Origin: an uncultured Acidimicrobiaceae bacterium
GTDB lineage: Bacteria; Actinomycetota; Acidimicrobiia; Spongiisociales; UBA5794
Assembly: GCA_964505525.1 (NCBI GenBank)
Contig: CAZDIQ010000001.1
Coordinates: 5,544-69,543 of the forward strand
Direction of reading: 5' to 3'
DNA length: 64,000 nt
Under the pieces are notes generated by a model. That model saw only the letters and a list, made by a program, of their open reading frames with translations, was not told the DNA's origin and searched no databases. The position numbers were made by a program, and so were the translations under genes. This document shows positions 43 to 44,159 of this stretch, piece by piece (within the stretch, counting starts at the first letter, position 1; each line of letters begins with the position of its first letter).

Positions 43-3000
43 TCAGCCGCCAAGCTGTGCGAGGATGCCCGGCAGTTGCACATTGACCCGGTCGTCGACC
101 GTAGCAACCATCCGCGTCCGGACCGGGTCGCTGATACCAGCAGCAGCGAGCCGCCGATCGAACCCGGCGACGTCGAAACCCTGCAACTTCGACAACTGGA
201 ACGCCGCCTCCTGATCCGACATGTCGCCATACAGGCGCCGACCCTGAGTCGACGACCGCAACGTCGACGGTTCCACCCACGTCTTGCCCGGAGCGAACGA
301 CGGCTTGTCGGCACCCATCGCCCGGTACTGGCCGGAGCCGCCGACGTCAATCCGGTACAAGGTGCCACCAGACGTGAGGACGTTGTCGCCGCCCATCCCG
401 TACGCATCCCACGACGACGCCAACGCGTCAGCGTGGAACCCGTTACGTGCCTGCATCTGAATGTCCGGGGTCACGTCCGAACCGACGATCTTGCCGAGCG
501 AACCGTCCGGTTCCTGGATCGCCTTCTTCGCGATGAACGACCGGCCCTCATGATCGAAGATGGCGGTGTCGTCCACCGGGACGCCCAGCTGCCGGTACAG
601 CATCTGTGATGCCAACTCGGACTCGGCGTGCTGACGGGACTGGGCGGGCTTCACAAGATACTTCTGGCCGTCCTCGTCGCGGTACCAGCCGCCGCCGTTC
701 GAGCCGAGAGGGCCACCCGTCTTGTGCATCGCGTCGAACTCGGCCATCGACGACGGCATCGACGAGACAGGCGCATGAACCGCCTCCATCTCCGCTGCGG
801 CCGCCTTCTGCTTCTTCGTGTACGCCGCCTTCTGCCCCGGTGTCATCGAGTTGTAGTCGGTGGGCGGAACGGCCCCGCCGCTCTTGGTCCACTTCCCGTT
901 CGCGTCGCGAGGGACATCCCCCCCAGCAAACGCGAACGACACCGGGATACCCGACATCGCGATCCGTTGCGTCAACGACATCCCATGCCGTTTGCTGTCG
1001 ATCGACTCGCGGGCACCGAACAGACGGGCCTGGCCGAGCAGCTGAGTCATCGGCACCGAAACTTCAACGACACGCATCCGGCGCGGAGACTCACCGACCG
1101 ACAGCGTCGCCTCCGCCGCCCAACGATGATGCCCGTCGAGAATGAACCCGTCCGCTGACACCATGACCGGCTTATCGCCGGGCTCCATCCGGCCGGAATG
1201 AATCGCTGTGATCATCTGGCCGACCTTGCGGCCGTCCAGCTGGTTCTGCGTCGCACGCAGTTCGGCCGGGTCCTTCGTCGTCACCCGGCTAGTGATCCCC
1301 CGCTCACCGAGGTAACCGACGAAGTCATCAACCCGGTCCGACGGGATCTGCGGCATGTCATGACGAGCCAACTGATTGTCGGCCACCGCCCCGAACAGAT
1401 TCGGGTGACCGTCGATCGTCACCTTCGTCAAGTCGGACGAACCTGGCCGGGTACCCAACTCCTCGATCAACGGGACAGCAGCAGCCGAACCGACGGTCAC
1501 CTTGCCGCCGTCGATGATGACGTCTGCGTCACCGACTGCCGAGGCGTGAGCAACGCCACCGCCCCTCGCCCAGCGGCCCCACGAATCGCGGGGGACGTCC
1601 GACGACTTGAACACGACCGTCCCGGTGGCAGCAAACTCGCCGAGCCCAGACCCGCTCTCCACGATCGTCGCGCGCGGTTCCCGCTTCGAGATACCGGTGT
1701 TGTCGATCACGATCCACTCGTCCATCAAGCCGCGGGACGACCGGAAGTTCTCGAAGTTCTTCGTCGACCCGTTCGGCAGACGCGACTGTTCGATGTACGA
1801 ACCCGGCACGTAACGGCCGCCGTCCTGCCACCGCTTGAACGCGGACGCCTTCGACTCGGACACCGGGACCTTCACGAACACGCCACGCACCGAGTAGCCG
1901 TCGTTACGGAAGTTGCCGATATCACGGGCCGGACTCGACGCCATCGTCTTGTCGATGACGACGTTCATGCCACGAGCACGAGCCTCGATCACCATGCGGT
2001 CAGCGATGTGACCGGACTCGACATGCAGCAATGCGGCATGTTCCCCGTCCGTCATGCCCGGCACCCGTCGCACCATCCCCCGGTCCAACATCTCCTGCTT
2101 CACGCCGTCCGGGTCGATATGCAGGAAGCCGTCCGAGTCGACGAACGAACCACGCGTCTCGCGGCCACGATGGAAACCGTCAGGATGATTCAAGGCCGAA
2201 CCCTTACCTGCCCCCGGAGGCCCACCCAGGAACACGACCTCACGGTCGTAACGTGCGTCGCCGGACATCATCTTGTCGATGATCTCGTTGTGTTGTGCTG
2301 TGCGTTCAGCCGTCCATTCGTTGCCCGGCAACGCGTCATGTTGAGCGACCGTCGAAGCCGGGCCGTGCATATCCAGGTTCTCCAACACGGCGCTCCGGGC
2401 GTCGCCGACATCCGGGGCCGCAGCCAACCGATCGGAAAGATCGGAGATCGCCACATCAGTCTGAGCCGACGTAGCCCGACCAATCTGAGCGTCGCCGTGC
2501 AAGTCCGGGGCGCCGACCCCGCCCGCAGTCGGACCCTGCTGCGGTGCGCCCGGCGCCGAAGCGCACCCGGCACCCTTACACCACTTGCCGTCCGGTGCAC
2601 GCGGGACACCAGCCGTCGGGCCACCACCACGGTTACCACGGAACTCGGCGCGCTCGCCGCCGCAGGTAGGGCACACCGCGAACAACCGGAACGTGCGGAC
2701 CTGGTCACCCTCCCAGAACATGATCTCGTCGAACTCGACACGGCCGGAACCGTCACCGAGCGTCACGCCCCGAGACTTCTCGACGGTGAGCCCGGCCGCT
2801 GCCAGACTCGCAACCAACACCGACTGGGCGTCGCCCATCTCAACGAGCGGCCCCATCACGCCCTGACCGATCACGTCGCAGGAGAACGGGGCGACCCCCG
2901 CCGAGAACTCGTCCAACGACGCGGCGAGCACAGCAGCGTCGGCGTCGACAACAGCCGCCAGCGCAGTCACCTGATCGGATCGGAACGCGACGGTGAGCAC
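43..3000 (-). CDS. Polyvalent virion/cargo protein: zeta-toxin-like P-loop kinase + ParB-type nuclease + C-terminal kinase-like domain
   Basis: 985-aa ORF. Walker A 'VVFLGGPPGAGKGS' in a zeta-toxin/AAA-kinase-like context. 'ILDGHHRWAAEA' matches the ParB N-terminal nuclease DGHHR motif. C-terminal 'GGDNVLTSGG..YRIDVGGSG' resembles the HxDNxL / DFG catalytic loops of PI3/4-kinase or HipA-like kinases (weak). Carries three 'VPRDxxGKW' motifs and one 'TPGQKAAYTKK' motif shared with the neighbouring MuF protein. Confidence 0.6.
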   Translation of the reverse strand: MLTVAFRSDQVTALAAVVDADAAVLAASLDEFSAGVAPFSCDVIGQGVMGPLVEMGDAQSVLVASLAAAGLTVEKSRGVTLGDGSGRVEFDEIMFWEGDQVRTFRLFAVCPTCGGERAEFRGNRGGGPTAGVPRAPDGKWCKGAGCASAPGAPQQGPTAGGVGAPDLHGDAQIGRATSAQTDVAISDLSDRLAAAPDVGDARSAVLENLDMHGPASTVAQHDALPGNEWTAERTAQHNEIIDKMMSGDARYDREVVFLGGPPGAGKGSALNHPDGFHRGRETRGSFVDSDGFLHIDPDGVKQEMLDRGMVRRVPGMTDGEHAALLHVESGHIADRMVIEARARGMNVVIDKTMASSPARDIGNFRNDGYSVRGVFVKVPVSESKASAFKRWQDGGRYVPGSYIEQSRLPNGSTKNFENFRSSRGLMDEWIVIDNTGISKREPRATIVESGSGLGEFAATGTVVFKSSDVPRDSWGRWARGGGVAHASAVGDADVIIDGGKVTVGSAAAVPLIEELGTRPGSSDLTKVTIDGHPNLFGAVADNQLARHDMPQIPSDRVDDFVGYLGERGITSRVTTKDPAELRATQNQLDGRKVGQMITAIHSGRMEPGDKPVMVSADGFILDGHHRWAAEATLSVGESPRRMRVVEVSVPMTQLLGQARLFGARESIDSKRHGMSLTQRIAMSGIPVSFAFAGGDVPRDANGKWTKSGGAVPPTDYNSMTPGQKAAYTKKQKAAAAEMEAVHAPVSSMPSSMAEFDAMHKTGGPLGSNGGGWYRDEDGQKYLVKPAQSRQHAESELASQMLYRQLGVPVDDTAIFDHEGRSFIAKKAIQEPDGSLGKIVGSDVTPDIQMQARNGFHADALASSWDAYGMGGDNVLTSGGTLYRIDVGGSGQYRAMGADKPSFAPGKTWVEPSTLRSSTQGRRLYGDMSDQEAAFQLSKLQGFDVAGFDRRLAAAGISDPVRTRMVATVDDRVNVQLPGILAQLGG

Positions 3001-3013
3001 GACCAGATGCTAG

Positions 3014-3256
3014 TCAGACGGCATCCGGGAGAGCGTCGTACACGGCCCGCGCTTCCTCCTCGGTCATCAACCCGAGATGCTGCGCCGACGTGATCGTCGC
3101 GTTCGACACGTTGTTCACCACGTCAGCGCCGCCGTCCGTCTCCGGATACTGCGGGGTGTCCCGATACACGAACTGGGCTGCCGCCGCAGCACCAAACTCC
3201 TCCAACGTGAACTCGCCGTCATGCAACCGTTCGAGCAGAGCGAGGAGCTTGTTCAC
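3014..3256 (-). CDS. hypothetical small acidic protein (80 aa); possible immunity/chaperone for adjacent toxin proteins
   Basis: ORF with non-Arg-rich composition, sandwiched between the MazF-like and polyvalent genes and 3 nt upstream of the polyvalent gene. No recognisable motif. Confidence 0.35.
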   Translation of the reverse strand: MNKLLALLERLHDGEFTLEEFGAAAAAQFVYRDTPQYPETDGGADVVNNVSNATITSAQHLGLMTEEEARAVYDALPDAV

Positions 3257-3990
3257 GAATCCAGTGTACGAGAACGACCGACACGGAACCGGCGCATCCT
3301 CAGCTGCACCTTCGGTGCCCCCTGCCGTTCGGTCAGATTGTCGATGATGTCCTGGAACACCGGCTTCTTCACGTAGGCACCCTCACGCCGATAGTTGACG
3401 TCGTCGATCTGCACGAACCGGTCCAGCTTCAAGAACGACTCCCGCTCCGACTTGTCCCAGTCACCCGAACCGATCGACGGTCGGTCACCGTCACGCCCAG
3501 CCTTCGACGTCAACTGCACACCGACCAGGTTCTTGCCGTCCTTCGTCCGTCCGATGATCAGCACCGGACGGTCCTTCGACTGGCGCGGGTCCTCCTCGAA
3601 CGGCACCCTGGCCCACACGATCTCGCCGGGGTCGGCGTGACCGTCCGGGTGGCGCGGCCGGTACGCGATCCGAACGTCCTCGAACGGGACATCCGGAAGA
3701 ACACCAGCCGGACGCGTCGGACCGCCAGGCGGCGGCGGGATACGACGACCAGGCGGCGGCGGGATCGGACGACCGGAACCGCCCGGCCCACGAGTCCAGC
3801 GGCCATCCGAGTCGCGTGGCACATCAGCCGACCCGGCAGCGACCAAAGCCTCCTCGACCGGCGGATAGACGTACGGGTCGAAGTCCGGGTCGTCGTCAAC
3901 GATGTCCGCCCACCACTCGATCACCGTCGACGCGGCACCGTCGCTGACGATCTCCAACTCGGTGTCAGCCATCCGCGCTTGCGTACTCAT
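3253..3990 (-). CDS. MazF/PemK (Kid)-like mRNA-interferase toxin domain protein with N-terminal 'VPRD..GRW' motif and Pro-rich linker
   Basis: C-terminal 'GEIVWARVPFEEDPRQSKDRPVLIIGRTKDGKNLVGVQLTSKAG' aligns to the Kid/PemK core 'GEIWLVSLDPTAGHEQQGTRPVLIVTP...VVPVTSGG'. N-terminal ~110 aa contain 'ADVPRDSDGRWTRG' and 'RPIPPPPGRRIPPPPGG'. ATGA overlap with upstream MuF gene. Confidence 0.55.
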   Translation of the reverse strand: MSTQARMADTELEIVSDGAASTVIEWWADIVDDDPDFDPYVYPPVEEALVAAGSADVPRDSDGRWTRGPGGSGRPIPPPPGRRIPPPPGGPTRPAGVLPDVPFEDVRIAYRPRHPDGHADPGEIVWARVPFEEDPRQSKDRPVLIIGRTKDGKNLVGVQLTSKAGRDGDRPSIGSGDWDKSERESFLKLDRFVQIDDVNYRREGAYVKKPVFQDIIDNLTERQGAPKVQLRMRRFRVGRSRTLDS

Positions 3991-6900
3991 CAGTCGACCA
4001 ACTCCACTTCCATGTACCGGTAATGGCGTCCCTGGTTGCCGTAACTGTCGCCCGGCGTGATGTGATCAGAGATCATCGTCACTCGATACTTGCTGTTCGC
4101 GGGCATGATCGTCTCCGACTCGTGCGTGTAGGACACCAATGATGGCACCCGCCGCGAATCGGTGAGCTTCACGATGACACGACGGTTGCCATGATCGGAG
4201 AACGACTCGGCGATGTTGAGGTCAACCGACCATGACCCGAACCCCTTGTCGACGTAGACGTCGCCGACCTTCAAGTCCAATTCCTGCATCGTCGAACCCG
4301 AACCGGAACCCTTGCCCCGATACATCTGCCGGGGAGCCGGTGTCGCCGCAGGCCCCTTGTACGCCGACTTCATGTCGGCGACCTTCTTGGTCACAGCAGG
4401 GCCGTGACTCTCGCCGCGTTTCATCGTGCCGTTCATCGGCCCGTACCCGGACCCGCCATACGAGTCGATGGCATACCGCTGATCCGTCGTCAGCTTCGCT
4501 GATTGAGCCGACTGACGTTGCGAATGGTGACCCTTACCGACGTCCTCGCCCTTCAACGGTCCGGCAGCCTTCACCGAGTTCATGAACGACTCGCGCGCGG
4601 CGCCCCCGGTGTAGGTGTGGACCTCGTGCGCTCCAGCCGGACCGGACGTCTTCGCGCCCTTCAAGTTCTGGCCCTTCGTGTACGCCGCCTTCTGCCCGGA
4701 CGTCCACGAATCCCACTCCGGAGGCTTCGGAGTTTCGAACTTGTTCGGCTGCTTCGGGTTGTTCTTCTTCGTCCACGCCGCCTTCTGACCCGGAGACATC
4801 GACGACCAGTTCGCTGGCTTACCGACCGCGCCCGGCGCGGCGACAACCGGCACAGCCGTCGGCTTCGCCGGGAACCCGGAGGCCACCCCGTTCTGCATCT
4901 TCGCCGTCGCCAGATGCGAACGAGGGATCTGTTCGTCCTGATAACCGGACGCTTTCAAAGCAGAGACGTTCGCCTGATAGTCGGCCTCATGAAACTTGGC
5001 AAGCGACGCCCGTTCTTCCGGGGTGTGACTCGCCTTGACCTGATCGACGGACTTGCCGGAGTGGTGAGCGATCAGAGCGGCCCGCTTCTCATCCGACATG
5101 GCGTCGATCTGGTCATCGGTGAACATGACCCGAGCCCCCGTCGGGTTCGGGCCACCCGTCGGTCGACGTTCCCCCGTCTCACGCAACACGGCACGACGAG
5201 ACTCCCTCGGCCCGGCCGCGTGCCCGTCGTTGTAGCCCAACTGTTCGTTGAGCACCTTGCGGTCAGCGATGTGCTGATCGTTCATCGCGCGCATGGCGTC
5301 GCGACGCTCGTCCGGAGTTGACGGCGTCAGCTTCGGAGCGTTCTTCGCCAGGTAGGCGTCGACCGTCGCGTCCGACGCCCCGTCCACGTCCGGCTTGTCC
5401 AACGTCCTACCACCGTCGATCTTCGAGGAGATGTGGAACTGCTTCATCTCCTCCAATTCGGCGGCCTTCGCCAGCTTCTCCTGTTCGGCGTCGTACGCCG
5501 CCTGCTTCGCCGCGGCAGCCATAGCAGCGTTCTTCTTCTTCGTGGCGGCCGCCTTCTGCCCCGGCGTCATCGGAGACATGTCCATCTCCAACTGGCCGTT
5601 GCACTGTGCGCCTTTGCACCACTTCCCGGTCGGGTCGCGAGGCACCGCGGCAGCCGACGCGGTCACCGCCTCGATCCAGCCACCACAGTCCGGGCACATC
5701 ATCGACGCCGACGCGACCAACGGATCATCCAAGTCGTAGATGTGATCCGGGTCAACGACCTCACCGCCGACGATCCACTGGTCATACGCACCGAAGAACG
5801 GCGACACCCGCCGCGTCGCGAGGAGCCCCTGGACGGGCTGATCGAAGACGTCCAAGTCCGGGTCGTCCCAGCCAAGTGGGAACGCCACCACTTCGTCGTC
5901 GATCCGGTCAGTCGCCTCGGCCTCCGTGAGCGCGGCGAACCGGACACGAATCACCGACAGGCCAGCAGCCTCCCAGGACGGCCGTACCGGATACGGCTTC
6001 TCCCCGCGATGCTTGTTGCAGCCCGAGCATGACGGGATCAGGTTCGGGAACGACTTGATTCCACCGTACGATCCGCCTTCGTTCAACGTCAGGATCTTGT
6101 CCTGCTCCATCGACGCGTGACCGCCGCGTCCCTTCGGGGACGTCTTGATCCCGCAGTGAGTGCACGGCACATACCCGCGCTTGTTACCGCCGTACTCGTC
6201 GAACAAGGCTTCGCCGCGGGCGCGGCGTGTCGCCGCCGAACCACGGTTGTCGCCACCCGCCCGGCCCTTACCTTCCTTCGCTTTCTGGGCCTGCTCCTTA
6301 TTGTGGGCGATCTTCTCCGCTGACGGCTGCGGCACATCGCGGGCCTTCTGATTCGACAGGGCCTGCGTCTCGGCTAGCTCGGCTTCCGACGCGAACCATT
6401 CGGCCGGGGCCGACACACGAGCCTGCGGCGACTTCTTCGCGAACTCGGCCGCGTCCATCGTCTCCAACATCTGGCCTTCGTTGCACTGTGCGCCTTTGCA
6501 CCACTTCCCGGTCTGGTCGCGTGGCACCGCAGCGATCCCGGCAGCGAACTCCGACGGCACTTCTGGCAGGCCGCACCGGGCACATACCGAAACGGTCGAA
6601 GCGATGAGGACCTCGCCTGGCAGTGAGATGGGCTGAATGGTGTCTGAATCGACCGGTATGCCGTTCACGACGTACTGCGTGTAGTCCAGGTCATCGACAT
6701 AGTTGACGGTGAGAGGACCGACGAGAGTGGTCAACCGTGGCAGGTCGTCACGGGTGAGAGCGAAGTCGCCTCCGCCGATCATGTCCCAGCCGTAAGCCCG
6801 AGCCGACACGGTCTGACCGTCGACCCATCCGGCAGCGGCCACGAGCCCGCTAGCAGCCCGGAAACAGGACGTGCACGACGGCAGCAGATTCCCGGCAGCG

Positions 6901-8228
6901 AGCGACCCTCCCGCCGACCACGGCACGATCGGTTCCGGGACGATCATCGCCATCCCGGCCGTCGGGTCATCAGTCAGCTTCAACCCGCAATGCACACACG
7001 GCACGAAGCCACGGTCGTTCCCCCCGAACTCGGCGTACAGGTCCGAACGAGCCCGGTTCCGGGCAGTGACCGACGGTGCCCGCGTCGACCCGGACAACTC
7101 GACCCGGCCAGCACGGCCCCGCTTGTACCGGGCACGCTTCTGAGCGGCACCGAACACGGCCCGCGGCGAATAACCCTGCGCGGTGAGAACCGTGTCCGAG
7201 CCGCGCATCGTCGCTCGTAGCTGCTGGATCAGCTGACCACGAGTCATCGAATGACGACCGACAATCCCTTCACCGCGGGCGTAGGCGAGCAAGGTCGAAC
7301 GGTTCATCTGATCGAACCGGTCCGGGCAGTCCGGGCCTCCCGCCAACCCTTGCAGGCAGAGGGCGCGCAGCACCGCGGCTTGCAGTTCGCCACGGTTCAT
7401 CGTCGACCGGCCGTCGATCGACAAGGTTTGCGCCTTCGCTGTCAGTTCGGCCTTCGTCGCGCCGATCACGCGGCGGGCCTCGGAGCCTTCGACGTAGCCA
7501 AGCTCGCACCGGCAGTTCACCCTCAACTCGAACGGCAGCAGCGGGTCGCCGGGGTAGCGGGCCTGGTAGCCGCCGACTGTGAACGTCGACCCGAACGGGA
7601 CCGTTTCCTGGTCGGCTGCGGCATGCTCGAACCTGACCCGGATATCTCGTTGCGTGATCCAACGCAACGCCGCGGGCTGCGCGTCCTGCATCCCTTCGAA
7701 CAGGCCGCCGTTCGCTGCGCCCTGCAACTCGGTGCGAGCCACCTGATCGGCGATCGCGTCAGTGAACGGCCCGTCCGTCGTCAGTCCCTCGCGGACCGAG
7801 GCAGCATCCCATGCCAGCCCGGACTGTTCACGAGCAGCGATCCATTGATCGAGTCGCAACCGGATCGACGGGGCATAGTCGATCAGGCCAAGCAGTTCCG
7901 ACGCGGCATGACCTACCCGCAAACCGAGCACACCGAGCACACCGAACGTGAGCACCCCGGCCATCAGACCGTCCAAGGTGGCGTCGCCCATCTCGTCGGA
8001 GATGTGCTCGGTGATGATCTCCTCCCACTCGTCGTCGGTGATCAGCTGCTCGTCGTTCGCTGCGGCCGTGAGCGTGCCATGCCGGGCAGCGATCCGCGGG
8101 GCCACCAGGTCCGCGGCAGCCTGGTAGGCGCGCCGGAACGCTTCGAGGCCGACCAGCCATGTCTCGTCGTCGAGCAGCTGGACTGGTTCGGAGTCGACCG
8201 CTTCGGCCAAGTCCATCGCCACGGTCAC
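3990..8228 (-). CDS. MuF-like minor capsid protein / polymorphic toxin with C-terminal ADP-ribosyltransferase (exoenzyme R-S-E type) domain
   Basis: 1412-aa ORF immediately downstream of portal. 'ELRVNCRCELGYV' matches the MuF/SPP1 gp7 CRC signature. Two Cys-rich 'YVPCxHCG...NLxPSCxxC' modules. C-terminal ~200 aa carry 'YRG' (Arg), 'GFGSWS' (STS-like) and 'THESETI' (ExE), the ordered catalytic triad of C3/Vip2-type ARTs. Repeated 'VPRDxTGKWCKGAQCN' and 'PGQKAA(A/W/Y)TKK' motifs. Confidence 0.65.
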   Translation of the reverse strand: MTVAMDLAEAVDSEPVQLLDDETWLVGLEAFRRAYQAAADLVAPRIAARHGTLTAAANDEQLITDDEWEEIITEHISDEMGDATLDGLMAGVLTFGVLGVLGLRVGHAASELLGLIDYAPSIRLRLDQWIAAREQSGLAWDAASVREGLTTDGPFTDAIADQVARTELQGAANGGLFEGMQDAQPAALRWITQRDIRVRFEHAAADQETVPFGSTFTVGGYQARYPGDPLLPFELRVNCRCELGYVEGSEARRVIGATKAELTAKAQTLSIDGRSTMNRGELQAAVLRALCLQGLAGGPDCPDRFDQMNRSTLLAYARGEGIVGRHSMTRGQLIQQLRATMRGSDTVLTAQGYSPRAVFGAAQKRARYKRGRAGRVELSGSTRAPSVTARNRARSDLYAEFGGNDRGFVPCVHCGLKLTDDPTAGMAMIVPEPIVPWSAGGSLAAGNLLPSCTSCFRAASGLVAAAGWVDGQTVSARAYGWDMIGGGDFALTRDDLPRLTTLVGPLTVNYVDDLDYTQYVVNGIPVDSDTIQPISLPGEVLIASTVSVCARCGLPEVPSEFAAGIAAVPRDQTGKWCKGAQCNEGQMLETMDAAEFAKKSPQARVSAPAEWFASEAELAETQALSNQKARDVPQPSAEKIAHNKEQAQKAKEGKGRAGGDNRGSAATRRARGEALFDEYGGNKRGYVPCTHCGIKTSPKGRGGHASMEQDKILTLNEGGSYGGIKSFPNLIPSCSGCNKHRGEKPYPVRPSWEAAGLSVIRVRFAALTEAEATDRIDDEVVAFPLGWDDPDLDVFDQPVQGLLATRRVSPFFGAYDQWIVGGEVVDPDHIYDLDDPLVASASMMCPDCGGWIEAVTASAAAVPRDPTGKWCKGAQCNGQLEMDMSPMTPGQKAAATKKKNAAMAAAAKQAAYDAEQEKLAKAAELEEMKQFHISSKIDGGRTLDKPDVDGASDATVDAYLAKNAPKLTPSTPDERRDAMRAMNDQHIADRKVLNEQLGYNDGHAAGPRESRRAVLRETGERRPTGGPNPTGARVMFTDDQIDAMSDEKRAALIAHHSGKSVDQVKASHTPEERASLAKFHEADYQANVSALKASGYQDEQIPRSHLATAKMQNGVASGFPAKPTAVPVVAAPGAVGKPANWSSMSPGQKAAWTKKNNPKQPNKFETPKPPEWDSWTSGQKAAYTKGQNLKGAKTSGPAGAHEVHTYTGGAARESFMNSVKAAGPLKGEDVGKGHHSQRQSAQSAKLTTDQRYAIDSYGGSGYGPMNGTMKRGESHGPAVTKKVADMKSAYKGPAATPAPRQMYRGKGSGSGSTMQELDLKVGDVYVDKGFGSWSVDLNIAESFSDHGNRRVIVKLTDSRRVPSLVSYTHESETIMPANSKYRVTMISDHITPGDSYGNQGRHYRYMEVELVD

Positions 8229-10312
8229 ACTCCGACAGGAGCGAGGACAGCCTGCTCGACGATCCCCGCGACCATTGCCTGCGGGACGCGCAGCCCGTTG
8301 ACCGGACGGATATCACGCAACAGGTTGTCTTCGGCGTACTGCTGCATGTCCTCGGCCAGCCGGAACGCTGCGAACGATGCCCGGTCAGCAGCGTCGCGCG
8401 GTTCGAACCCGACTCCTTCCAGATAGTCGGACATCCAGGCCCGAGTCTGAATGGACAGTTCATCCCACGCGTCCTTCAACAGCACCTTCGGCGTCAGGGA
8501 GAACTCGGTCAACTCGCCAGCGGTGACCATCGACATGACCTGCGTCGCACGGACGTGCTTCACCCGGTCACGCAGGATCGGGTTCTTCGTCTTCGCCAGA
8601 TTCACGATCCGGTTCCCGGCGCGTTCCATCGCCCGGCCGAGAGCGGCGTCAGCGGCAGTCGTCAACCGTTCAACCATCATCGACGCGACCACAGCCTCAT
8701 CAACGTTCGCCGGTTCCTCCGAACCGGTAGCAGGCACAGTCTCATCGGGTGCCACCGGATCGTTCTCCGTCGTCTCGTTGTCGAGCGGGGTGCCGACCTG
8801 GCCGATCTGCTCCGCGTCGACGTCCTCCATGCCAGAGATCAACGGCAGCAACTTCGCGTACACCGCTGGCTGCGTCGACACCAGCTGCCACAGACGACGC
8901 TGACGGATCGTGTCCTTCGACGCCAGGTCGGCCTTGCTGAACCCGTTGGCCGTGAGAATCGCCTCGTCCGACAGCCAGTCAGCAAGGTCACGGGCCGACT
9001 TCGCTTCGTCATTCCGGGCGATGACCGGCGACGGATCAAACTCAACCTTGAACCCGGCGGCCTCCTCCTCAGACATGCCCTCGAACGCCATCAGCATCGG
9101 ACGCAGATACGAGTTCGTGATGAAGTCGGCGATCAGCTGCCCGATCGGCTGGATGTGCTTGACGATGAACTCGGCGTCGATGTTCGCTGCGGTCCAATGA
9201 TTCGCCGTCGACTTGCCGGACACGATCTCCGGAGGGGCGTCCAAGCCTGCCGCCAACCGGCCGAGCGCCTCTTGACGGAGCGACTGCAACGACAAGGCAT
9301 CCAGGTCGCGGGCCAGCACGATGATCTCAATCCCGGAGCCGCCCTCGCGGCGTGGCCCGGTGATCGCCAACGGCATTACCCGTGACGCCGACGTCGGGTC
9401 GAGCAGCGGGGCCGTCATGTGTTCGAACAGTTCGTCGACGAAGTCCGGTTCGCCGTCCTCGACGTCAGGGTCCGAGTCGTCGAGCGGCGTCGCGCCCATC
9501 ACCTGCAAGTCGTCCGGGATGTAGATGAGGTTCGCCGGGATACGCGACTTAGCGATGGCGTCGACCACCTGTGTGAGCGTGACGATCTCCTGCAAGATGG
9601 GCAGAACCCGGCGAACCTCAGAGTCAGCCAGATCCGAGTAACGCGGCGACGACCGCCAGATACGAGCCGTGTACGACTCGTCGTCCATCGGGACGGCCTC
9701 TGTGAAGTTCGCCCGCTTCCGCATCAACTTGCCTTCGGCGTCAACGTAGACCTCGTCGACCGACAGGAACTCCCACACCAAGTCCTGGTTCTCGTCGTTC
9801 GTGCCGCACAGATGCGCCTCACCCGTGCAGTACAAGTTCCAGGCGCAGCGGCGCACAAGGTCTTCCATGCCGCCCTGCGGGCCGACGAACGCCCGCATCA
9901 CGTTCGACGGCCGGTCGTCGTAGTCGTCGTCGGTTTCGTCCTTGTCGTCGATGGCCGGGTCGTTCGCCAGCCAGCTGGCCTGTTCCTTCGACCACTTCCG
10001 GACCGGGAACGAGCACAACGACACAGTGTTCGCCTGCAAGTTCAGCACCGCCCCGAGTTCCCCGACCTCGATCGCGAAGTCCATCGACTTCTGCTGCCAC
10101 GTCCGGTCGGTCTTCGACATGAGCCGACGCCGCGAACGGATGACCCGATCCTCGTCGCTGATCTTGCGGAGCGCCGACGACGACACTTTCGGGTTCCGGG
10201 ACGGTTGCTGCATCGCGAACTCGACCGGCTTCGTGGAGAACAGACGCTTCTTGCCCTCATCCAACGACACAGGCTTCTTCGGTTGACGCGCCATCGGCGT
10301 CACGCTACTCAA
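8225..10312 (-). CDS. portal protein
   Basis: 695-aa acidic protein directly upstream of the MuF gene; size, position and composition typical of portal proteins. No motif-level proof. Confidence 0.5.
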   Translation of the reverse strand: MSSVTPMARQPKKPVSLDEGKKRLFSTKPVEFAMQQPSRNPKVSSSALRKISDEDRVIRSRRRLMSKTDRTWQQKSMDFAIEVGELGAVLNLQANTVSLCSFPVRKWSKEQASWLANDPAIDDKDETDDDYDDRPSNVMRAFVGPQGGMEDLVRRCAWNLYCTGEAHLCGTNDENQDLVWEFLSVDEVYVDAEGKLMRKRANFTEAVPMDDESYTARIWRSSPRYSDLADSEVRRVLPILQEIVTLTQVVDAIAKSRIPANLIYIPDDLQVMGATPLDDSDPDVEDGEPDFVDELFEHMTAPLLDPTSASRVMPLAITGPRREGGSGIEIIVLARDLDALSLQSLRQEALGRLAAGLDAPPEIVSGKSTANHWTAANIDAEFIVKHIQPIGQLIADFITNSYLRPMLMAFEGMSEEEAAGFKVEFDPSPVIARNDEAKSARDLADWLSDEAILTANGFSKADLASKDTIRQRRLWQLVSTQPAVYAKLLPLISGMEDVDAEQIGQVGTPLDNETTENDPVAPDETVPATGSEEPANVDEAVVASMMVERLTTAADAALGRAMERAGNRIVNLAKTKNPILRDRVKHVRATQVMSMVTAGELTEFSLTPKVLLKDAWDELSIQTRAWMSDYLEGVGFEPRDAADRASFAAFRLAEDMQQYAEDNLLRDIRPVNGLRVPQAMVAGIVEQAVLAPVGV

Positions 10313-13935: not shown

Positions 13936-13954
13936 CGCAAGCGACGAGCGTAGG

Positions 13955-14698
13955 TCATCGTGCGACAGATTCGCAGAGTTCGATGGGGACGAGCAACGGG
14001 CCACTGCCAGTGTCCGGTTCGTTGCCCCAGCCTCGCGAACGGACGTCCACGGCGACGCCGATCCGTTCGCCTTCGTACATGATCCTGCCGACCGCTGGTC
14101 GTGGCTGCATCGCTCCCAACTGACCGTGGTCGGTGCCGTGCGGGGTCCGCCACCGGACCAGGCCGACGTCGTCAGCTTCGACGGTGGCGTGGCCGAGTTC
14201 GACCATCTCCGCGATCGACGCGTACTGGGCGTACATCCAGGCATCCTCGGCGTGGCGTTCGGCGGCGAGCTTCATGCCGTTCGAGGTCCGGTATTGGGAC
14301 TGGTCGTCACGGTCGTAGAACCCGAACTTGCCGTCGAACGCTGCCGGGTGCTGCTCGGCAAGTTCCGTCGCTGTGGTGACGGCCCAGGCATGTACCTTCG
14401 TGCGGACAGATTCCGATGCATCCTCGTAGCCGCAGTGACTGTCGTTCAGGCGACGGACCGCGCCGTACGACGAGACGTGCCATCCTCGTTCGCTGTCGAC
14501 CACGGTCAGCGAAGCGATGTCGTGGACGATGCCGTTCACTTCGATCGTGTGGCCGAGCCCGAACCGGTAGCCTCCGAACCGGACAGAACGTGTGAGCGCC
14601 GAGGTCAGGGCGTAGGCGACCGGCAGTGCGCCGAGCATCCGGTTGCCGACGACAAGGACTTCGGTCGGGGCGATGTCGCCCGCCAGCAGGACGTTCAT
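13955..14698 (-). CDS. hypothetical protein (247 aa)
   Basis: Clean ORF in operon, ATGA-coupled to neighbours; no recognisable motif. Confidence 0.4.
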   Translation of the reverse strand: MNVLLAGDIAPTEVLVVGNRMLGALPVAYALTSALTRSVRFGGYRFGLGHTIEVNGIVHDIASLTVVDSERGWHVSSYGAVRRLNDSHCGYEDASESVRTKVHAWAVTTATELAEQHPAAFDGKFGFYDRDDQSQYRTSNGMKLAAERHAEDAWMYAQYASIAEMVELGHATVEADDVGLVRWRTPHGTDHGQLGAMQPRPAVGRIMYEGERIGVAVDVRSRGWGNEPDTGSGPLLVPIELCESVAR

Positions 14699-39495: not shown

Positions 39496-39996
39496 TTACG
39501 AGCCGACGAGCACGAACCGGCCAGCCGGAACGGTCAACGTCACCCGATACACGGCGTAGCCGGGGTCCTCGACTGGGTTCACAGCACGAGGCAACGTGAA
39601 CTTGACGTCGGCCTTCATCTTCGTGGCCCCGTCCGGCAACGTCAACGTCGCCGGGATCGTGCCACGCCCCGTCGTGACCGGCCCGAAAGCGCCCGAGATG
39701 AGGGTCTGCAAGTTGGCCCACAATCCCATCCACGCGTCGTCGTGTGCCACCCCGTTCTGGTCGGCGTACCCATTCACGAACAAAGTCAACTCGTAGTCCG
39801 ATTCGTCATACCGCGACGGATACGACCGTTGACCGGCCGCGGTCGGCAACAGCACCGAGTCCGCCCGGATCGCATGCTCAACCCACAAGGCTTGCAGGTC
39901 AGTGATGTCCCAGGCCGGGCAGTTCAACGGGAAGTCGTCATCGCCGACGTCGAGCGCGCCGAGGCACCCGTACTCGTTCTCACACCACCCGGCCAT
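39496..39996 (-). CDS. minor tail protein (166 aa)
   Basis: Start overlaps TMP stop. Confidence 0.4.
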   Translation of the reverse strand: MAGWCENEYGCLGALDVGDDDFPLNCPAWDITDLQALWVEHAIRADSVLLPTAAGQRSYPSRYDESDYELTLFVNGYADQNGVAHDDAWMGLWANLQTLISGAFGPVTTGRGTIPATLTLPDGATKMKADVKFTLPRAVNPVEDPGYAVYRVTLTVPAGRFVLVGS

Positions 39997-42900
39997 CAGA
40001 ACTCCTCATCCCAGTCGATCCTGCCCGCGCCCAGGTCGGACAGCTGCGACACGATACGCGTCGCCGTCTTATGTGCGTTCTTCGCTTCGTTCACCGTGAT
40101 CTGCTCGACGTTCACCGACCGGTCCATCGAACGCGATACCGCCTGACGTGCCGCCGCCGACGGCACCAAAGGACGTCCCCCACGGGAACCGTGCGCGACG
40201 TCAGCGGACACCGGGTCCCTACGAGACAAGGCCAGCCCGAACATTTCGGCCACCTGCGACAGCACCTTCTCAGATTGGCGACGCTTCCGCACCCCCAACG
40301 GGATGTACGCCTCGCCACCGGTTTCCGGCTCGGCAAAGACCCGCCACGCCCCGGCCGGTGCCATGTGGGCCGTATGGTTCTCGCGGACCCCACCGTTCCG
40401 GAAGAACAGGAGGCCACCGTCAGCGAACGGGATGCCACCACCGTTTGCCGAGACACGCTGGTTCCGTCCCGCGCTCTCAACTTGCAACGCTTCAAGGATC
40501 TGCCGGTCCCGTTCGGAGATGACGACGTTCACGTTCACCGGCACTTCGATCCCCGCGGCAGCCGCGATGTTCGCGGCTGTGATCGCCGCCTCAACAGCTT
40601 CCTGCATCTTCGTCGACAGCAGGTCCGGTTGGATCAGATTGTCGACCAGCTGCTGCGCGATCGCCGGGTCGAGCCCACCAGCCGTCAACTGGTTCGTCAA
40701 GTCCTGCGACGCCGACGCCAGGAACAGCTGGGCGGCGGTCGCGCCTTGCGTCTCGAAGATGCCCTGAGCCTGAGACAGAATCCCGTTGATCGTCGGCGCG
40801 AGCGTGTCCTGGAACAGCTGCTTCGATTCTTCGGTCGGCGCGGCCAGGATGAACTGGTACAGGCCGATCCCGGCCTCAGCGGCCTGCTGCTTCACGATGT
40901 CGAGCAGCCCGCCAGGGTTCGACAAGTCGATGCCACCGAGCCGGGCTTCCAACTCGTCCAGTTCCCGCAACGCGTCATCAAGGTTGCGTTGAGCCTTCTC
41001 AGCGTCCTGGAACACGAGCGCCCGTTCACGTTCAAGCGCCGCCGCGCCGACCGTCGCGCCAGCGGCACGGGCCGCTTCGATCCGGGCGTCGAGAATGTCG
41101 GCTTCGGTCTGGGCGTCGGCCTGTTCGCGGGCGACGTCCGCGCGTAGATCGGCGATCGTGTCGCGCTGATCGTTGATATCTTCGATCAGCCGCTTGGCTT
41201 CCTCCTGAGCCTTCTTGAATCCGTCGGAGTCGACCAACCCGAGCAACGCCGATGAGATCCCAGCGATGTCCGTCTCGATGTTCTGGCGGGCGACGGTGAG
41301 CGACAGGTTCTTGTCGAGCCCGGAGAACGCTGTCGACACCAACTTCGTCGCGGCCTCAACCCCCTTCAACGCCTCCTCGTATGCCTCCTCCAAGTCTTTG
41401 ACGCTCTTGGCTTCGTCGTCGAGCAGCTGCTGCCGTTCCTTCGCGACCCCGGCCATGTACCGCTGGTTCGCCGCGTAGGCGTCGGCCATCGTCTTGTAGG
41501 ACTTACCGGTCTGGTCGGCGTCAAACTCGGCGCGGGTTCGCAGGGAGTCGAGCACAGGGGAAACGACCCGGTCAATCTCATCAAGTCGTCCAGCGATACG
41601 GGCGACGTCCTCGACGTTGACGATGCGGTTGGCCAACCCTCCCTCGTAGACGTACAACGAGTCGAGGAACGCTGCAATGTCGGCGTCGGTGCCTGCCAGA
41701 AGCTCCTTCAACTCGTCACGATTGATCCGCACCCCGTTCGGCAGCCCGGACAGCAGTTCCTCCATGAAGTCGGTGTCCAGCTGCTGGGACAGGAACTCGT
41801 CGAACGACTCGGTGTCAATGACGTCCTCGGCGGTCAGCTTCTGGGCTTCGGTGATACCGAAGGCTTCACCGAACTCGGTGCGGATCGTGTCGGCGAGCGT
41901 TTCGACGGTCGCCTGGAACTCCTCGGCTTCACGCTTCCCGGCTTGCAGCTGACCGACGATCGCACCGATCGCGGTCGCCCCGACAGCCAACCCCAGCCCG
42001 ATCGGTCCACCGGCCGCGAACCCTGCGGCGGCCGACCCGACCGCCGACACGAACGACGTCACCTTCCCTGCGGTGTCATCGGCGGCGAACCCGATCCCGG
42101 AGATGGCCCCGACGATCGCGGCCGACCCGACGACCGCGGCCGACGAGAACTTCTTGACCGCACCACCAGCGGTATCCATCGACGTCGTCGTCGTCTCCAC
42201 AGCGGCGCCTGCTTCGCTCGCGGCCTTCGCCGTGCCAGGCAGCACCGCCGAGAACCGGGAGAACGACGCCGTGATCGACGTGATCGTCCCAGCGACCCCT
42301 TGTGCGGCCTTGAACGCGACGAAGGCAGTCACCATCGAGGTCAGTACAGGGACTGGGATGATCTCCAAGACGTCGGCGAGAGCGGTGAGCCCCGGCACCA
42401 GAATTGACGCCAACGTCGTACCGGTCTGGGCGACGGCGGGGCCAAGCTCAGCGATGATCCGACCGATCTCTGGCAGCACCCGCCCCATCAACGGCAACAG
42501 TTGAGTGATAACCGGCACGACCCCTTCGAGGGCTGAGCCGAGCCCCGTGAACAATCCTTCGAACGCTGGCGCGAGAGCGAGGCCGAGGTCGTCGACCAAC
42601 GGAAGGATCTGGGGGATGAGCCCCTCGAACGACCGGGCCAGGGCAGGCCCGATGGCCTTCAACGCAATGTCGACCTGACCCTCCAACGGGCCGAGAGCGT
42701 CCGCGACCAAGGTCGACACACCAGAAAACGCGGAGATCAGGTTCAGCTGGATCGTGTCACCGAACGCGGACAGCTTGCCTTGCAAGGTTTCAGCAGCCGC
42801 TTCGATCGACCCGGCGACACCAGGGAACTCCTGCATCCGTTCGAGCAGAATGTCGACGGCGTCTTCCCCGGTGATCGCCCCGTCCTTGATCTTCTCCTGA

Positions 42901-44159
42901 GCCTCCTGGAACGACACTCCAAACCGCTCAGCGACCCCTTCGGCCAGCTGCATCTCGGTGTTGAAGCCAGGCAGAGTCGACGTGATCTGGCGCAGGTCCT
43001 GCGTCAACGGCTTGACACTGGTACGAATCTGGCCGAGCGCGAGCGTCAGCCGACCGAACGCCTCCGGGCTGCTGTTGCCGAGCAACGCGACGATCGCCCC
43101 CAGATCCTTGACGGTCGGGACGACCTCCTCAGCGGTGATACCAATCGCGAGCAGCTGACGGGCAGTGTTCGCGAGGGTTTGCGTGTCGAACGGTGACGGG
43201 ATCGCGAACGCTTGCAGTTCCTTGAACAAGACGTCGGCCTGTTCCGCGGAGCCGAGGATGTTCTCGAACGACTTGATCGTCCCTTCGAGCGCGGCCGCCG
43301 ACTGGACACCCATGACAGTGATCGCTGCGCCAGCCGCGCCGATCGCCGCGACCCCGCCGACTGCCAGGAACCCGAGACGACTGACGAGTCGCCCGATCCC
43401 ACCATTATTCGACGCGGCCTTGTCAGCGACCGCGTCGACCGCTTCGATCTGTGCGGCAGCCGACGCGATCCCGTTGACATCGAACTGAATGTCGATATCT
43501 CGACCGTCCAACGCGGCGACAGCCGCGGTGACCGTCGACAATTGAGACAACGCCGTCGCCGCGTCGACGTCCACGTCGATGTCGACCGGCTGGCCGGACA
43601 CGGCCGTGATGAGCGTCGAGATACGAGCCAGTTCCGCCCGTGCCCCAGCGTCACGGACGATCGGATCAATGATGATCGTGTCCGACTCGACCGACTTCGC
43701 GATAGCCGCCAACCGGAGCAGAGCGGCGTTGGCTTCCTCGATCTGGTCCGTGCGGAGATCGGCCTGCAACTTGATCGTGTCGAACGCGTTGAGGCCAGCG
43801 ACAAGCTGGGCGATGTCACCGCGGGCGGTAGCCAGGTCAAGCTTGACCGGGATATCAATCCCGACTGCCTCGGCCGCCGCCTTGACCCCGGCGATCTCGC
43901 GGGCCATCGGCGCGGTGTCGGCATCGACCGGGACCGTGATCCCACCGGCCGCAGCAGTCCGTTGCAGGACGGCAAGCTCACGACGAATCTCGGCCCGCAC
44001 CTTCGACAAGTCAACGGTGACACCGATGTTGACCTTCGCCTGCTCCTCCAACGTCCGCATCTCTTGCAGCAGACGTCGACGGATAGCGGCGATGTCCCGC
44101 AGCAGCTTCTCGTCAGAGAGCCGAAGGTCACCGGTTGCGGTCGCCAGCGGATCTGCCAC
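39996..44159 (-). CDS. tape measure protein
   Basis: 1387 aa, Ala/Gly/Leu-rich coiled-coil-like, internal hydrophobic segment, GVT start; largest tail gene. Confidence 0.8.
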   Translation of the reverse strand: MADPLATATGDLRLSDEKLLRDIAAIRRRLLQEMRTLEEQAKVNIGVTVDLSKVRAEIRRELAVLQRTAAAGGITVPVDADTAPMAREIAGVKAAAEAVGIDIPVKLDLATARGDIAQLVAGLNAFDTIKLQADLRTDQIEEANAALLRLAAIAKSVESDTIIIDPIVRDAGARAELARISTLITAVSGQPVDIDVDVDAATALSQLSTVTAAVAALDGRDIDIQFDVNGIASAAAQIEAVDAVADKAASNNGGIGRLVSRLGFLAVGGVAAIGAAGAAITVMGVQSAAALEGTIKSFENILGSAEQADVLFKELQAFAIPSPFDTQTLANTARQLLAIGITAEEVVPTVKDLGAIVALLGNSSPEAFGRLTLALGQIRTSVKPLTQDLRQITSTLPGFNTEMQLAEGVAERFGVSFQEAQEKIKDGAITGEDAVDILLERMQEFPGVAGSIEAAAETLQGKLSAFGDTIQLNLISAFSGVSTLVADALGPLEGQVDIALKAIGPALARSFEGLIPQILPLVDDLGLALAPAFEGLFTGLGSALEGVVPVITQLLPLMGRVLPEIGRIIAELGPAVAQTGTTLASILVPGLTALADVLEIIPVPVLTSMVTAFVAFKAAQGVAGTITSITASFSRFSAVLPGTAKAASEAGAAVETTTTSMDTAGGAVKKFSSAAVVGSAAIVGAISGIGFAADDTAGKVTSFVSAVGSAAAGFAAGGPIGLGLAVGATAIGAIVGQLQAGKREAEEFQATVETLADTIRTEFGEAFGITEAQKLTAEDVIDTESFDEFLSQQLDTDFMEELLSGLPNGVRINRDELKELLAGTDADIAAFLDSLYVYEGGLANRIVNVEDVARIAGRLDEIDRVVSPVLDSLRTRAEFDADQTGKSYKTMADAYAANQRYMAGVAKERQQLLDDEAKSVKDLEEAYEEALKGVEAATKLVSTAFSGLDKNLSLTVARQNIETDIAGISSALLGLVDSDGFKKAQEEAKRLIEDINDQRDTIADLRADVAREQADAQTEADILDARIEAARAAGATVGAAALERERALVFQDAEKAQRNLDDALRELDELEARLGGIDLSNPGGLLDIVKQQAAEAGIGLYQFILAAPTEESKQLFQDTLAPTINGILSQAQGIFETQGATAAQLFLASASQDLTNQLTAGGLDPAIAQQLVDNLIQPDLLSTKMQEAVEAAITAANIAAAAGIEVPVNVNVVISERDRQILEALQVESAGRNQRVSANGGGIPFADGGLLFFRNGGVRENHTAHMAPAGAWRVFAEPETGGEAYIPLGVRKRRQSEKVLSQVAEMFGLALSRRDPVSADVAHGSRGGRPLVPSAAARQAVSRSMDRSVNVEQITVNEAKNAHKTATRIVSQLSDLGAGRIDWDEEF

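Follow-up and report, generated by a model that had tools for sequence, protein, structure and literature searches.

The gene examined here lies at the beginning of a 64,000-nucleotide stretch (the window) of contig CAZDIQ010000001.1 from an uncultured Acidimicrobiaceae bacterium. It is read from the minus strand and encodes a protein of 985 amino acids (aa) composed of three distinct domains (zeta-toxin-type, ParB/sulfiredoxin (Srx)-like, and kinase-like), which are separated by poorly conserved linkers (Table 1). An earlier note on this DNA had described the open reading frame (ORF) at 43-3000 and quoted four motifs from it (GGPPGAGKGS, DGHHRW, GGDNVL, and IDVGGSG), and the ORF and all four motifs were found where they had been placed. 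The gene lies within a head-morphogenesis module, whose minus-strand order is portal, MuF polyprotein, MazF-like protein, 80-aa ORF, and 985-aa gene, with tape-measure and tail genes also in the window. The same position is occupied in an IMG/VR contig (L003) and in Gordonia phage GodonK. This context supports the view of the earlier note that several effector domains of a polyvalent protein stand next to MuF, with two small genes intervening between the MuF polyprotein and the 985-aa gene.

At the G+C content of this DNA (64-66%), chance alone produces long ORFs on either strand. One of 631 aa on the plus strand (1198..3093), which overlaps most of the 985-aa gene, was considered as the alternative gene and rejected, its GC values at codon positions 1/2/3 (0.79/0.52/0.66) having the pattern of a shadow frame. 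The corresponding values of the 985-aa gene (0.66/0.50/0.80) resemble those of its neighbors, MuF (0.64/0.50/0.81) and portal (0.64/0.43/0.84); because of this composition, a Pfam match, thousands of homologues of the C-terminal domain, and an orthologue, we regard the 985-aa ORF as a real gene. No near-identical DNA was found in the phage collection, and the portal protein is about 25% identical to the portals of Gordonia, Mycobacterium, and Microbacterium phages; we therefore assign the window to a tailed virus, or a prophage, that is actinophage-like and uncultured.

The orthologue in L003 (937 aa) is encoded downstream of a MuF gene and shares 56% identity over 791 residues. It matches Zeta_toxin (E=1e-15, 57.9 bits), contains DGHHRWAAEA, and keeps all kinase motifs. 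Because identity to the orthologue is high within the domains and low and gapped between them, the 985-aa protein can be read as three folded domains under selection, carried on free linkers. In the search for related loci, peptide patterns for close relatives gave no hits in either GTDB genomes or IMG/VR. The broad alignment A4 proved too diverse for a pattern search, and the closer alignment A2 gave two loci.

Table 1 Features of the window, and identity of the parts of the 985-aa protein to the L003 orthologue.
Feature	Position	Strand	Evidence or remark	Identity to L003 (gaps)
Polyvalent gene, 985 aa, GTG start, stop codon 43-45	43..3000	minus	ORF list, codon-position GC, orthologue in L003	
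N-terminal region, residues 1-225	2326..3000	minus	Fast-evolving, least conserved part	26% (28)
CPTCG...VPRAPDGKWCKGAGC element, residues 110-146	2563..2673	minus	Holds the first PR[DA]xxG[KR]W copy	
Zeta-toxin-type P-loop kinase domain, residues 254-423	1732..2241	minus	Pfam PF06414, E=7.4e-12	63% (0)
Motif PRDSWGRW, residues 470-477, in the linker between the zeta and ParB-like domains	1570..1593	minus		33% (19), linker
ParB/sulfiredoxin-like domain (probable), residues 487-660	1021..1542	minus	phrog_2859 'unknown function', E=1.3e-24	51% (0)
Linker between the ParB-like and kinase-like domains, with the third motif PRDANGKW (889-912) and TPGQKAAYTK (814-843)	811..915	minus		41% (10)
Protein-kinase-like domain (predicted), residues 752-985	46..747	minus	AlphaFold2 model, Foldseek, conservation	68% (1)
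80-aa ORF immediately upstream of the 985-aa gene	3014..3256	minus	Position kept beside the orthologue	
PemK/MazF-like toxin-domain protein, 245 aa	3253..3990	minus	Pfam PemK_toxin, E=3.6e-7	
Polyprotein MuF-HNH-HNH-ADP-ribosyltransferase, 1412 aa	3990..8228	minus	phrog_2468, E=3.9e-21; phrog_960, E=3e-26; Pfam PF03496 ADPrib_exo_Tox, E=6.7e-7	
Portal protein	8225..10312	minus	phrog_776, E=2.1e-79	
Tape-measure gene, with tail genes further along	39996..44159		PHROG/Pfam scans	

Predicted fold and conserved residues of the C-terminal domain

A first model of the C-terminal domain used 5 sequences and was of low quality around the catalytic region (predicted local distance difference test, pLDDT, of 60); it was replaced by an AlphaFold2 model built from 48 diverse domain sequences, which reached a pLDDT of 97 and a predicted template modeling (pTM) score of 0.92. 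Comparison of this model with the PDB using Foldseek returned 78 matches at E≤1e-3, and the best 50 of these 78 were all of the kinase fold (probability 0.97-1.00). RioK1 gave the best E-value (1.2e-5) and H. pylori CtkA the best template modeling (TM) score (0.60), followed by HipA, APH, Bud32, ASK1, and eukaryotic-type kinases. The secondary structure of the model follows the kinase order: a strand, the Gly-rich loop, a strand, the Lys-bearing strand, helix C with its Glu, and two strands, continuing with two helices, the catalytic loop, two short strands, and the metal-binding Asp. A compact kinase fold of the HipA/RIO-like type is thus the assignment supported by the model.

When the kinase motifs were located in the protein, the Gly-rich loop corresponded to GSNGG (residues 766-770), followed by Lys784 (window 649-651), the helix-C Glu795, and the catalytic loop WDAYGMGGDN (residues 864-873, window 382-411), which overlaps GGDNVL (residues 870-875). 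IDVGGSG occupies residues 884-890 (IDVGG, residues 884-888, window 337-351), and R893, K899, E910, R915, and R971 are further conserved residues. Across 166 copies of the domain, G868 was present in all; G766, K784, E795, and N873 in 164 each; Y802, D865, and G888 in 162 each; D858 in 161; K899 in 160; R883, G887, and R893 in 159 each; W864 in 153; S767 in 149; D872 in 146; and D885 in 145, with Glu in 16 more. The core motifs (GSNxG, K784, E795, D865...N873, and D885) occur in order on the matching structural elements and are 87-99% conserved, and the 985-aa protein departs from the family consensus only at N794 (Ser) and N863 (Ser). Both checks that the earlier note had proposed for this region, a Foldseek comparison and the conservation of catalytic residues, came out in favor of its atypical kinase-like domain, the second for the Gly loop, Lys, Glu, Asp/Asn, and Asp.

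That note had also seen in this region a resemblance to PI3/4-kinases or HipA, and weak sequence matches to HipA were found. In a domain-only Pfam scan of 48 sequences, 12 matched HipA_C (best E=2.9e-4), 3 matched HipA_2, and 1 each matched APH and PI3_PI4_kinase (E=0.0028), all weakly; the 985-aa protein itself matched HipA_C with E=0.065 (13.3 bits against a cut-off of 30.5), and its relatives at best with 4.5e-5. No HipA_N-type domains and no helix-turn-helix gene alongside were matched in the Pfam/PHROG scans. Alignment of the family with E. coli HipA by hhalign and hmmsearch was confined to the helix-C 'NE' region. By eye, the L-x-N-W-D stretch of the family resembles L-I-G-A-T-D309 of HipA with a three-residue insertion before the Asn, and on inspection we assume that the loop is equivalent to HipA D309/N314/D332. 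Membership of the PI3/PI4-kinase family (PF00454) was rejected, as the domain has GGDN and IDVGG, not DRHxxN and DFG, and 1 of the 48 relatives matched that model.

Kinases normally place the catalytic Asp five residues before the Asn (Asp-x4-Asn). The loop of this family reads N-W-D-V-x-G-L-x-x-D-N, with the invariant Gly (166/166) five residues before the Asn and Asp at -8 (162/166) and -1 (146/166), so that the spacing is Asp-x7-Asn and not Asp-x4-Asn. This non-canonical loop weighs against a straightforward assignment and makes kinase activity, or its type, uncertain. The departure from the canonical loop would suit a kinase-fold domain that is not a protein kinase, serving instead for phosphorylation of small molecules (as in APH and PI3/4-kinases), for nucleotide transfer (as in SelO), or as an inactive binding module. 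The matches of family members to APH and PI3_PI4_kinase besides the HipA models would suit it as well, as would the fusions to NUDIX, ADP-ribosyltransferase (ART), and 2H domains, which point to nucleotide-centered chemistry, and the zeta and ParB/Srx-like domains of the same protein, which are also nucleotide enzymes. We nevertheless consider this explanation rather unlikely: the best structural matches (RioK1, CtkA, and HipA) are protein kinases, the HipA models are the most frequent sequence matches (12/48), and the almost invariant set of ATP- and metal-binding residues argues against an inactive module.

Size, occurrence, and fusion partners of the kinase-like family

A word-indexed search gave four relatives of the C-terminal domain, and an exhaustive profile search that covered 1.84 billion representatives gave 4,508 representative clusters (50% identity) at E≤1e-3, with 3,104 at E≤1e-10; most of these proteins are 1,000-7,000 aa long. 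The family had no significant match in the Pfam copy used (newest models 2025), NCBIfam 20, or PHROGs v4, its stand-alone members were likewise without Pfam matches, and NCBIfam returned only noise-level matches to nucleoside kinases. Searches of the PDB sequences with the kinase-domain profile, the whole protein, and the zeta segment gave only noise (enoyl-CoA hydratase, calmodulin). A literature search found no description of the family, which appears to be undescribed and to be distinguished by its atypical catalytic loop.

Using the kinase-like domain as a tblastn query, 20 cultured phage records were found (phages of Gordonia, Pseudomonas, Yersinia, Aeromonas, Escherichia, Enterobacter, and Morganella, and an Actinomycetia phage). 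Cultured phages that carry the domain include Gordonia phages GodonK, Sixama, and Forza, Pseudomonas phages Jeremy and Dolphis, Yersinia phage fHe-Yen8-01, and Escherichia phage ECML-606-1. All carriers in these records are annotated as 'hypothetical protein' or 'ADP-ribosyltransferase'; the GodonK carrier, gp67, immediately follows the portal gene. Structural matches in BFVD with TM-scores of 0.75-0.77 lay within proteins bearing the names 'portal protein HK97' and 'ADP ribosyltransferase' and in Gordonia phages Sixama and GodonK, and scores of 0.60-0.61 were obtained for Mycobacterium phage Onyinye and Haloarcula hispanica tailed virus 1. The family spans phages of Actinobacteria and Proteobacteria and a haloarchaeal virus.

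Among 44 full-length proteins, the Pfam partners of the kinase-like domain were ART (9), Zeta_toxin (6), MuF (6), NUDIX (3), S78 (3), and DUF3626 (3), with ferritin, DRAT, 2H, and HNH as further partners. The IMG/VR contig L004 encodes a portal-MuF fusion (2915-5200) and, immediately after it, a 1585-aa fusion of an S78 prohead protease to the kinase-like domain (5280-10037). Since prohead protease, portal, and MuF are components of the procapsid interior, such fusions provide our main, indirect argument that the kinase-like domain travels in the capsid. The earlier note had considered the domain combination possibly new. The same three domains in the same order recur not only in L003 but also in the metagenomic proteins P0012 (919 aa) and P0020 (911 aa), and in four further proteins a zeta and a kinase-like domain occur together in a different order or beside different partners. 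No cultured phage record covers at least 80% of the 985-aa protein.

The domain is also found in multiple copies. A metagenomic protein of 3416 aa (P0010) carries five in tandem (residues 104-298, 685-915, 1884-2092, 2410-2620, and 2962-3161), and about 40 of the 150 best matches aligned over two or three stretches, of which several are clearly distinct copies of the domain. In three proteins, P0045 (402 aa), P0131 (452 aa), and BFVD A0A6J5L3S4, the kinase-like domain is joined directly to a NUDIX hydrolase. These NUDIX fusions hint at a nucleotide-related substrate or regulator.

The zeta-toxin and ParB/sulfiredoxin-like domains

For the first domain, the zeta-toxin-like kinase proposed in the earlier note was recovered by Pfam with 45.6 bits against a curated cut-off of 22.3, and the segment also matched phrog_24083 and phrog_16619. 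Its Walker A motif, GGPPGAGKGS (residues 259-268, window 2197-2226), is a GKG(S/T)-type P-loop, and both this motif and HIDPD (residues 293-297) are kept in the orthologue. In a phmmer search, no zeta toxin of the PDB aligned to the segment. The sequence evidence supports a zeta-toxin-type kinase, and the conserved 80-aa ORF, which has no family match, lies directly upstream of the gene that contains it.

The middle domain contains the motifs NLF, R..MPQ, LRATQNQLDGRKV, and ILDGHHRWAA, with DGHHRW at residues 622-627 (window 1120-1137). A profile search with this domain found more than 600 relatives, mostly proteins of 180-600 aa without Pfam annotation. For nearly all of 120 listed relatives the Pfam column was empty, and the entries that did occur, ART, MuF, RelA_SpoT, and S78 (the prohead protease), are fusion partners, with no PF02195 among them. 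R..MPQ, a Gln, a Gly, and DGHH are invariant in the family (D, G, H, and H across 68 relatives). No match to Pfam ParBc (PF02195) was obtained at E≤10 for the middle domain or five relatives. In a PHROG scan of the 68 relatives, 39 matched phrog_1033, 33 matched phrog_8071 (best E=2e-5), and 19 matched phrog_2159, besides other families; the matched PHROGs are annotated as ParB-like partition protein or nuclease, or as ParB-methylase-type.

When the profile of the 68 sequences was compared with 177,635 PDB sequences, 1vk1 ranked first (E=0.033) and SerK next (E=0.16), both through DGHHRWA. The PDB title of 1vk1 is only 'Conserved hypothetical protein', and we take it to be a Pyrococcus SerK homologue with the ParB/Srx fold. 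Alignment with human sulfiredoxin using hhalign gave a P-value of 0.0038 and a probability of 8.8%; the segment LRATQ...DGHHRWAA was aligned to IRPLP...GGCHRYAA, pairing LRATQNQLDGRKV...DGHHRWAA with IRPLPSVLDPAKV...GGCHRYAA, which form the strand-helix-strand-strand-helix core of the fold. Two more specific assignments were rejected. Comparison with B. subtilis Spo0J gave no meaningful alignment with a chromosomal-type ParB, and comparison with P1 DdrB gave a probability of 0.08% (E=0.66), a single-sequence test that leaves room for a very remote link.

Residues 487-660 probably form a divergent domain of the ParB/Srx superfamily that is not detectably related to P1 DdrB. Of the 'ParB DGHHR nuclease' of the earlier note, the motif and, at family level, the superfamily are retained; the domain has no Pfam ParBc match, and nothing observed justifies the label 'nuclease' over NTP binding, hydrolysis, or phosphotransfer. 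The ParB/Srx fold serves as an ATP/ADP-binding phosphotransfer module in SerK, SbnI, and sulfiredoxin, and a 2025 survey shows that its nucleotide ligand, CTP, ATP, or GTP, differs between proteins (PMC12704722). The ParB-like family has two near-invariant Cys residues (FDLCxV...NLFC) within the part corresponding to residues 487-560 (window 1321-1542). Both are absent in the 985-aa protein (DLTKV...NLFG) and in its orthologue (DLTLI...NMFR), which places the two in a divergent subgroup.

A different fold, in which DGHHRW would be a chance motif of an unrelated phage domain, phrog_2859, might be argued from the missing ParBc matches even at E≤10, from PDB matches that depend on about 15 residues around DGHHRW (E 0.03-0.9), and from a sulfiredoxin probability of just 8.8% with Spo0J and P1 DdrB unmatched. 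This seems unlikely, given that over half of the 68 members independently match several ParB-like PHROGs (best E 2e-5), that the sulfiredoxin alignment covers the expected segment in the right register, and that the two best matches among all PDB sequences are ParB/Srx-fold proteins.

Neighboring genes, N-terminal region, and shared linker motifs

The MuF polyprotein is itself polyvalent, and the equivalent region of L003 is divided into two genes, one for MuF alone and one for an HNH...ART-like protein. In the MazF-like protein, the PemK/MazF domain (residues 121-218) is preceded by an N-terminal extension of 120 residues, in which both the shared linker motif and a Pro-rich repeat (RPIPPPPGRRIPPPPG) are found. 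Because of this extension, the MazF-like protein is suggested to be another packaged effector and not the toxin of a toxin-antitoxin pair. Its gene is not kept beside the L003 orthologue, unlike the 80-aa ORF, which is 44% identical to L003:5604-5849 and has the same place and orientation there. The 80-aa ORF had no Pfam or PHROG match; its product may be a partner protein that acts as immunity factor/antitoxin or as chaperone.

Two genes upstream of the portal, a 794-aa protein (11860-14244, minus strand) matched phrog_62 'DNA helicase' (E=1e-65). A terminase would be expected near this position, and none was identified among the ten large ORFs scanned in the window.

Residues 1-225 gave no Pfam match at E≤10 and weakly resemble P0012 and P0015 in their N-terminal parts. 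The region ends in a four-Cys element, possibly resembling a small zinc ribbon, which is followed by a low-complexity Gly/Pro/Ala stretch. This CPTCG...VPRAPDGKWCKGAGC element has two equivalents in the MuF polyprotein (BLASTP E 1e-6 and 2e-4). The copies of the pattern CxxCG-(10-20 residues)-VPRxxxGKWCKGAxC, at 2563-2673, 5601-5696, and 6483-6584 (minus strand), embed three PR[DA]xxG[KR]W motifs.

Six-frame translation of the 64-kb window contained six copies of PR[DA]xxG[KR]W (889-912, 1570-1593, 2581-2604, 3796-3819, 5619-5642, and 6501-6524; minus strand). All six lie in three adjacent genes, those of the 985-aa protein, the MazF-like protein, and the MuF polyprotein, with the copy at 3796-3819 in the MazF-like gene and two copies in the MuF polyprotein, and each stands between recognizable domains. 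Among the relatives fetched, 27 occurrences were observed against 0.35 expected from shuffling, usually in the form (E/H/Q)PRDxxG(K/R)(W/F)xxGGG. The motif could mark a site of processing, act as a signal for packaging, or serve as a structural connector. A second linker element, (S/T)xGQKAAxTK(K), has one copy in the 985-aa protein (814-843) and three in the MuF polyprotein (4674-4703, 4767-4796, and 5538-5567; minus strand), and related forms (SPGQKAAHTKR and TSEGARRAWESR) stand ahead of the kinase-like domain in the stand-alone relatives P0001-P0003. Together with the small upstream gene, the PRDxxG(K/R)W motif could help to explain how such proteins are packaged, processed, or silenced.

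Proposed function and alternative explanations

In the published model, polyvalent proteins are made late, packaged, and ejected with the DNA, becoming active before phage transcription, and the class includes zeta-MuF fusions (PMC5512222). We favor the reading that the 985-aa protein is such a polyvalent effector, expressed late by a tailed virus of the actinophage-like kind, and each of its domain types is found elsewhere fused to prohead-interior proteins. According to this proposal, the 985-aa protein would enter the capsid together with the portal/MuF assembly or by way of it, perhaps using the variable region at its N-terminus and the PRDxxG(K/R)W elements shared among the linkers, and would be ejected into the host together with the phage DNA, where the three domains would act within the first minutes of infection. 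The zeta P-loop kinase would phosphorylate a nucleotide-sugar or a nucleotide. Classical zeta toxins act on UDP-GlcNAc; AvrRxo1 acts on NAD, which would provide an alternative. For zeta domains of polyvalent proteins, weakening of the cell wall through UDP-GlcNAc phosphorylation has been proposed (PMC5512222). The ParB/Srx-like domain would bind and hydrolyze a nucleoside triphosphate, with DNA nicking or phosphate transfer as possible further activities. The HipA/RIO-like domain would phosphorylate host proteins, shutting down host functions or defenses; HipA itself phosphorylates GltX. In the producing cell, the product of the 80-aa upstream gene may silence one of the toxic domains.

Several points weigh against this proposal. 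We infer packaging and ejection from fusions of the same domains with MuF, portal, and S78, and the substrates named for the three domains are proposals; in this locus MuF is not fused to the 985-aa protein and is encoded two genes away. No zincin-like metallopeptidase or other processing domain was found in the protein with Pfam, PHROGs, or NCBIfam. For the zeta domain, HIDPD presumably holds the candidate catalytic Asp, the equivalence of GGPPGAGKGS and HIDPD to zeta Lys46/Asp67 resting on motifs compared by eye, and the middle domain taken alone had phrog_8071 as its best ParB-like match, a weak one (E=0.016). A metallopeptidase is common in polyvalent proteins, not obligatory (PMC5512222).

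Alternatively, the locus could be a toxin or exclusion module, in which a prophage expresses toxins of the toxin-antitoxin, abortive-infection, or superinfection-exclusion type with the 80-aa ORF as antitoxin, acting inside the producing cell or released against competitors as MuF-type polymorphic toxins. The zeta, PemK/MazF, and HipA-like folds are classical among type II toxins, the gene with the zeta domain is immediately preceded by a small conserved ORF, much as zeta is by epsilon, and MuF-toxin fusions have been interpreted as polymorphic toxins (PMC5576092). However, the genes lie on the same strand within the portal-MuF head module, and the partners of the domains elsewhere are prohead protease, portal, and MuF; in addition, the 80-aa ORF matched no epsilon/PezA, MazE, or HipB family in Pfam or PHROGs, and the N-terminal linker motif of the MazF-like protein is a polyprotein-type feature foreign to toxin-antitoxin toxins. 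On balance, a toxin or exclusion module is improbable.

Within the packaged-effector reading, a further step is possible though somewhat doubtful: the C-terminal domain would define a very large unnamed family of virion-delivered phage kinases, and the 985-aa protein would be an injected 'triple phosphotransferase' (zeta P-loop, SerK/sulfiredoxin-like ParB, and kinase-like). If true, such a protein would rewire or disarm the host before phage gene expression. Polyvalent head-packaged effectors are a recognized, almost untested class, and another member is in itself unsurprising. A widespread kinase that is present before phage transcription would be a plausible general tool for counter-defense or takeover. 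The size of the family and its consistent link to the capsid interior may surprise specialists, and the cultured carriers allow direct testing.

Comparison with known systems

The closest counterparts are the polyvalent proteins described by Iyer, Burroughs, Anand, de Souza, and Aravind in 2017 (PMC5512222). As in that class, several unrelated enzymatic domains are joined in one polypeptide, the genes are late or virion genes beside MuF and portal, the repertoire comprises zeta, ParB/Srx-like, ART, HNH, and kinase domains, and the same domains are re-used as a mosaic in many architectures. The 985-aa protein differs in having no zincin and in a ParB-like domain without detectable similarity to P1 DdrB, on which the 'DdrB-like ParB' domain of that study is modeled as prototype. 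The polyvalent kinase family described in the same study is found mainly in Verrucomicrobia-Chlamydia and Bacteroidetes, has lost the whole C-terminal subdomain, and has a His...Asp insert and conserved Glu and Gln (PMC5512222). In contrast, the present family has NWD without His, retains helices in its C-terminal half (159-233 in the model), and has Asp instead of Glu before strand 2 and Ser in the last N-lobe strand; going by the published text description, the two appear to differ.

A named precedent for zeta plus a ParB-type domain, gp114 of halovirus HCTV-5 (KC292027), annotated as 'zeta toxin and ParB nuclease domain protein', is a large virion-module protein of similar outline, with 1293 aa and a Pfam zeta domain followed by a DGHHR-type segment. 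It shares a gene cluster with a Mu gpF-like and an HNH gene, about 3.6 kb downstream past a sialidase and an integrase gene. Homology is detectable in the zeta domain only (34% identity over 180 aa), however, and the DGHHR region fits the middle-domain profile over about 18 residues only. This archaeal virus protein lacks the kinase-like domain (A4 profile E=0.064) and has different linker repeats.

The middle domain resembles SerK (5x0e, 1vk1) and sulfiredoxin, in that SerK and 1vk1, the best PDB sequence matches, have an identical DGHHRWA motif, and the expected segment of sulfiredoxin aligns. The similarity is limited to the surroundings of the motif, with single-sequence E-values that are not significant, and SerK and sulfiredoxin have no counterpart of the extra N-terminal sub-domain (NLF...R..MPQ).

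With the HipA/CtkA kinases, the C-terminal domain shares a kinase-like fold (TM 0.45-0.60), weak matches to HipA_C and HipA_2 (12 and 3 of 48), a helix-C 'NE' motif that aligns with E. coli HipA residues 198-224, and, by eye, the L-x-N-x-D start of the catalytic loop and an R-(L/I)-x-D metal-binding strand. Unlike HipA, it has neither the HipA N-terminal domains nor a HipB-like partner, is about half the size, spaces its loop as Asp-x7-Asn and not Asp-x4-Asn, falls below the Pfam thresholds, and occurs in polyproteins of phage head modules instead of toxin-antitoxin operons. RioK1 (PDB 4otp) is similarly compact, with 236 aa aligned over 235 columns, and lacks a classical activation loop and substrate-binding lobe, as does the present domain; identity is 12%, the TM-score about 0.5, and there is no sequence-level match. 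In archaea and eukaryotes, RIO kinases act as ATPases in ribosome biogenesis.

Phage kinases that disarm defense systems include T7 kinase gp0.7 (PMC13645617), which inactivates many such systems by phosphorylation, and JSS1_004 (PMC12345140). These are products of early-expressed genes and not virion-module proteins, and the likeness is a functional analogy that concerns the proposed role only, in which a kinase delivered by the phage targets host proteins as infection begins. Against this background, the polyvalent class and two of the three domains were already known, and the third domain appears to represent a large, undescribed kinase-like family.

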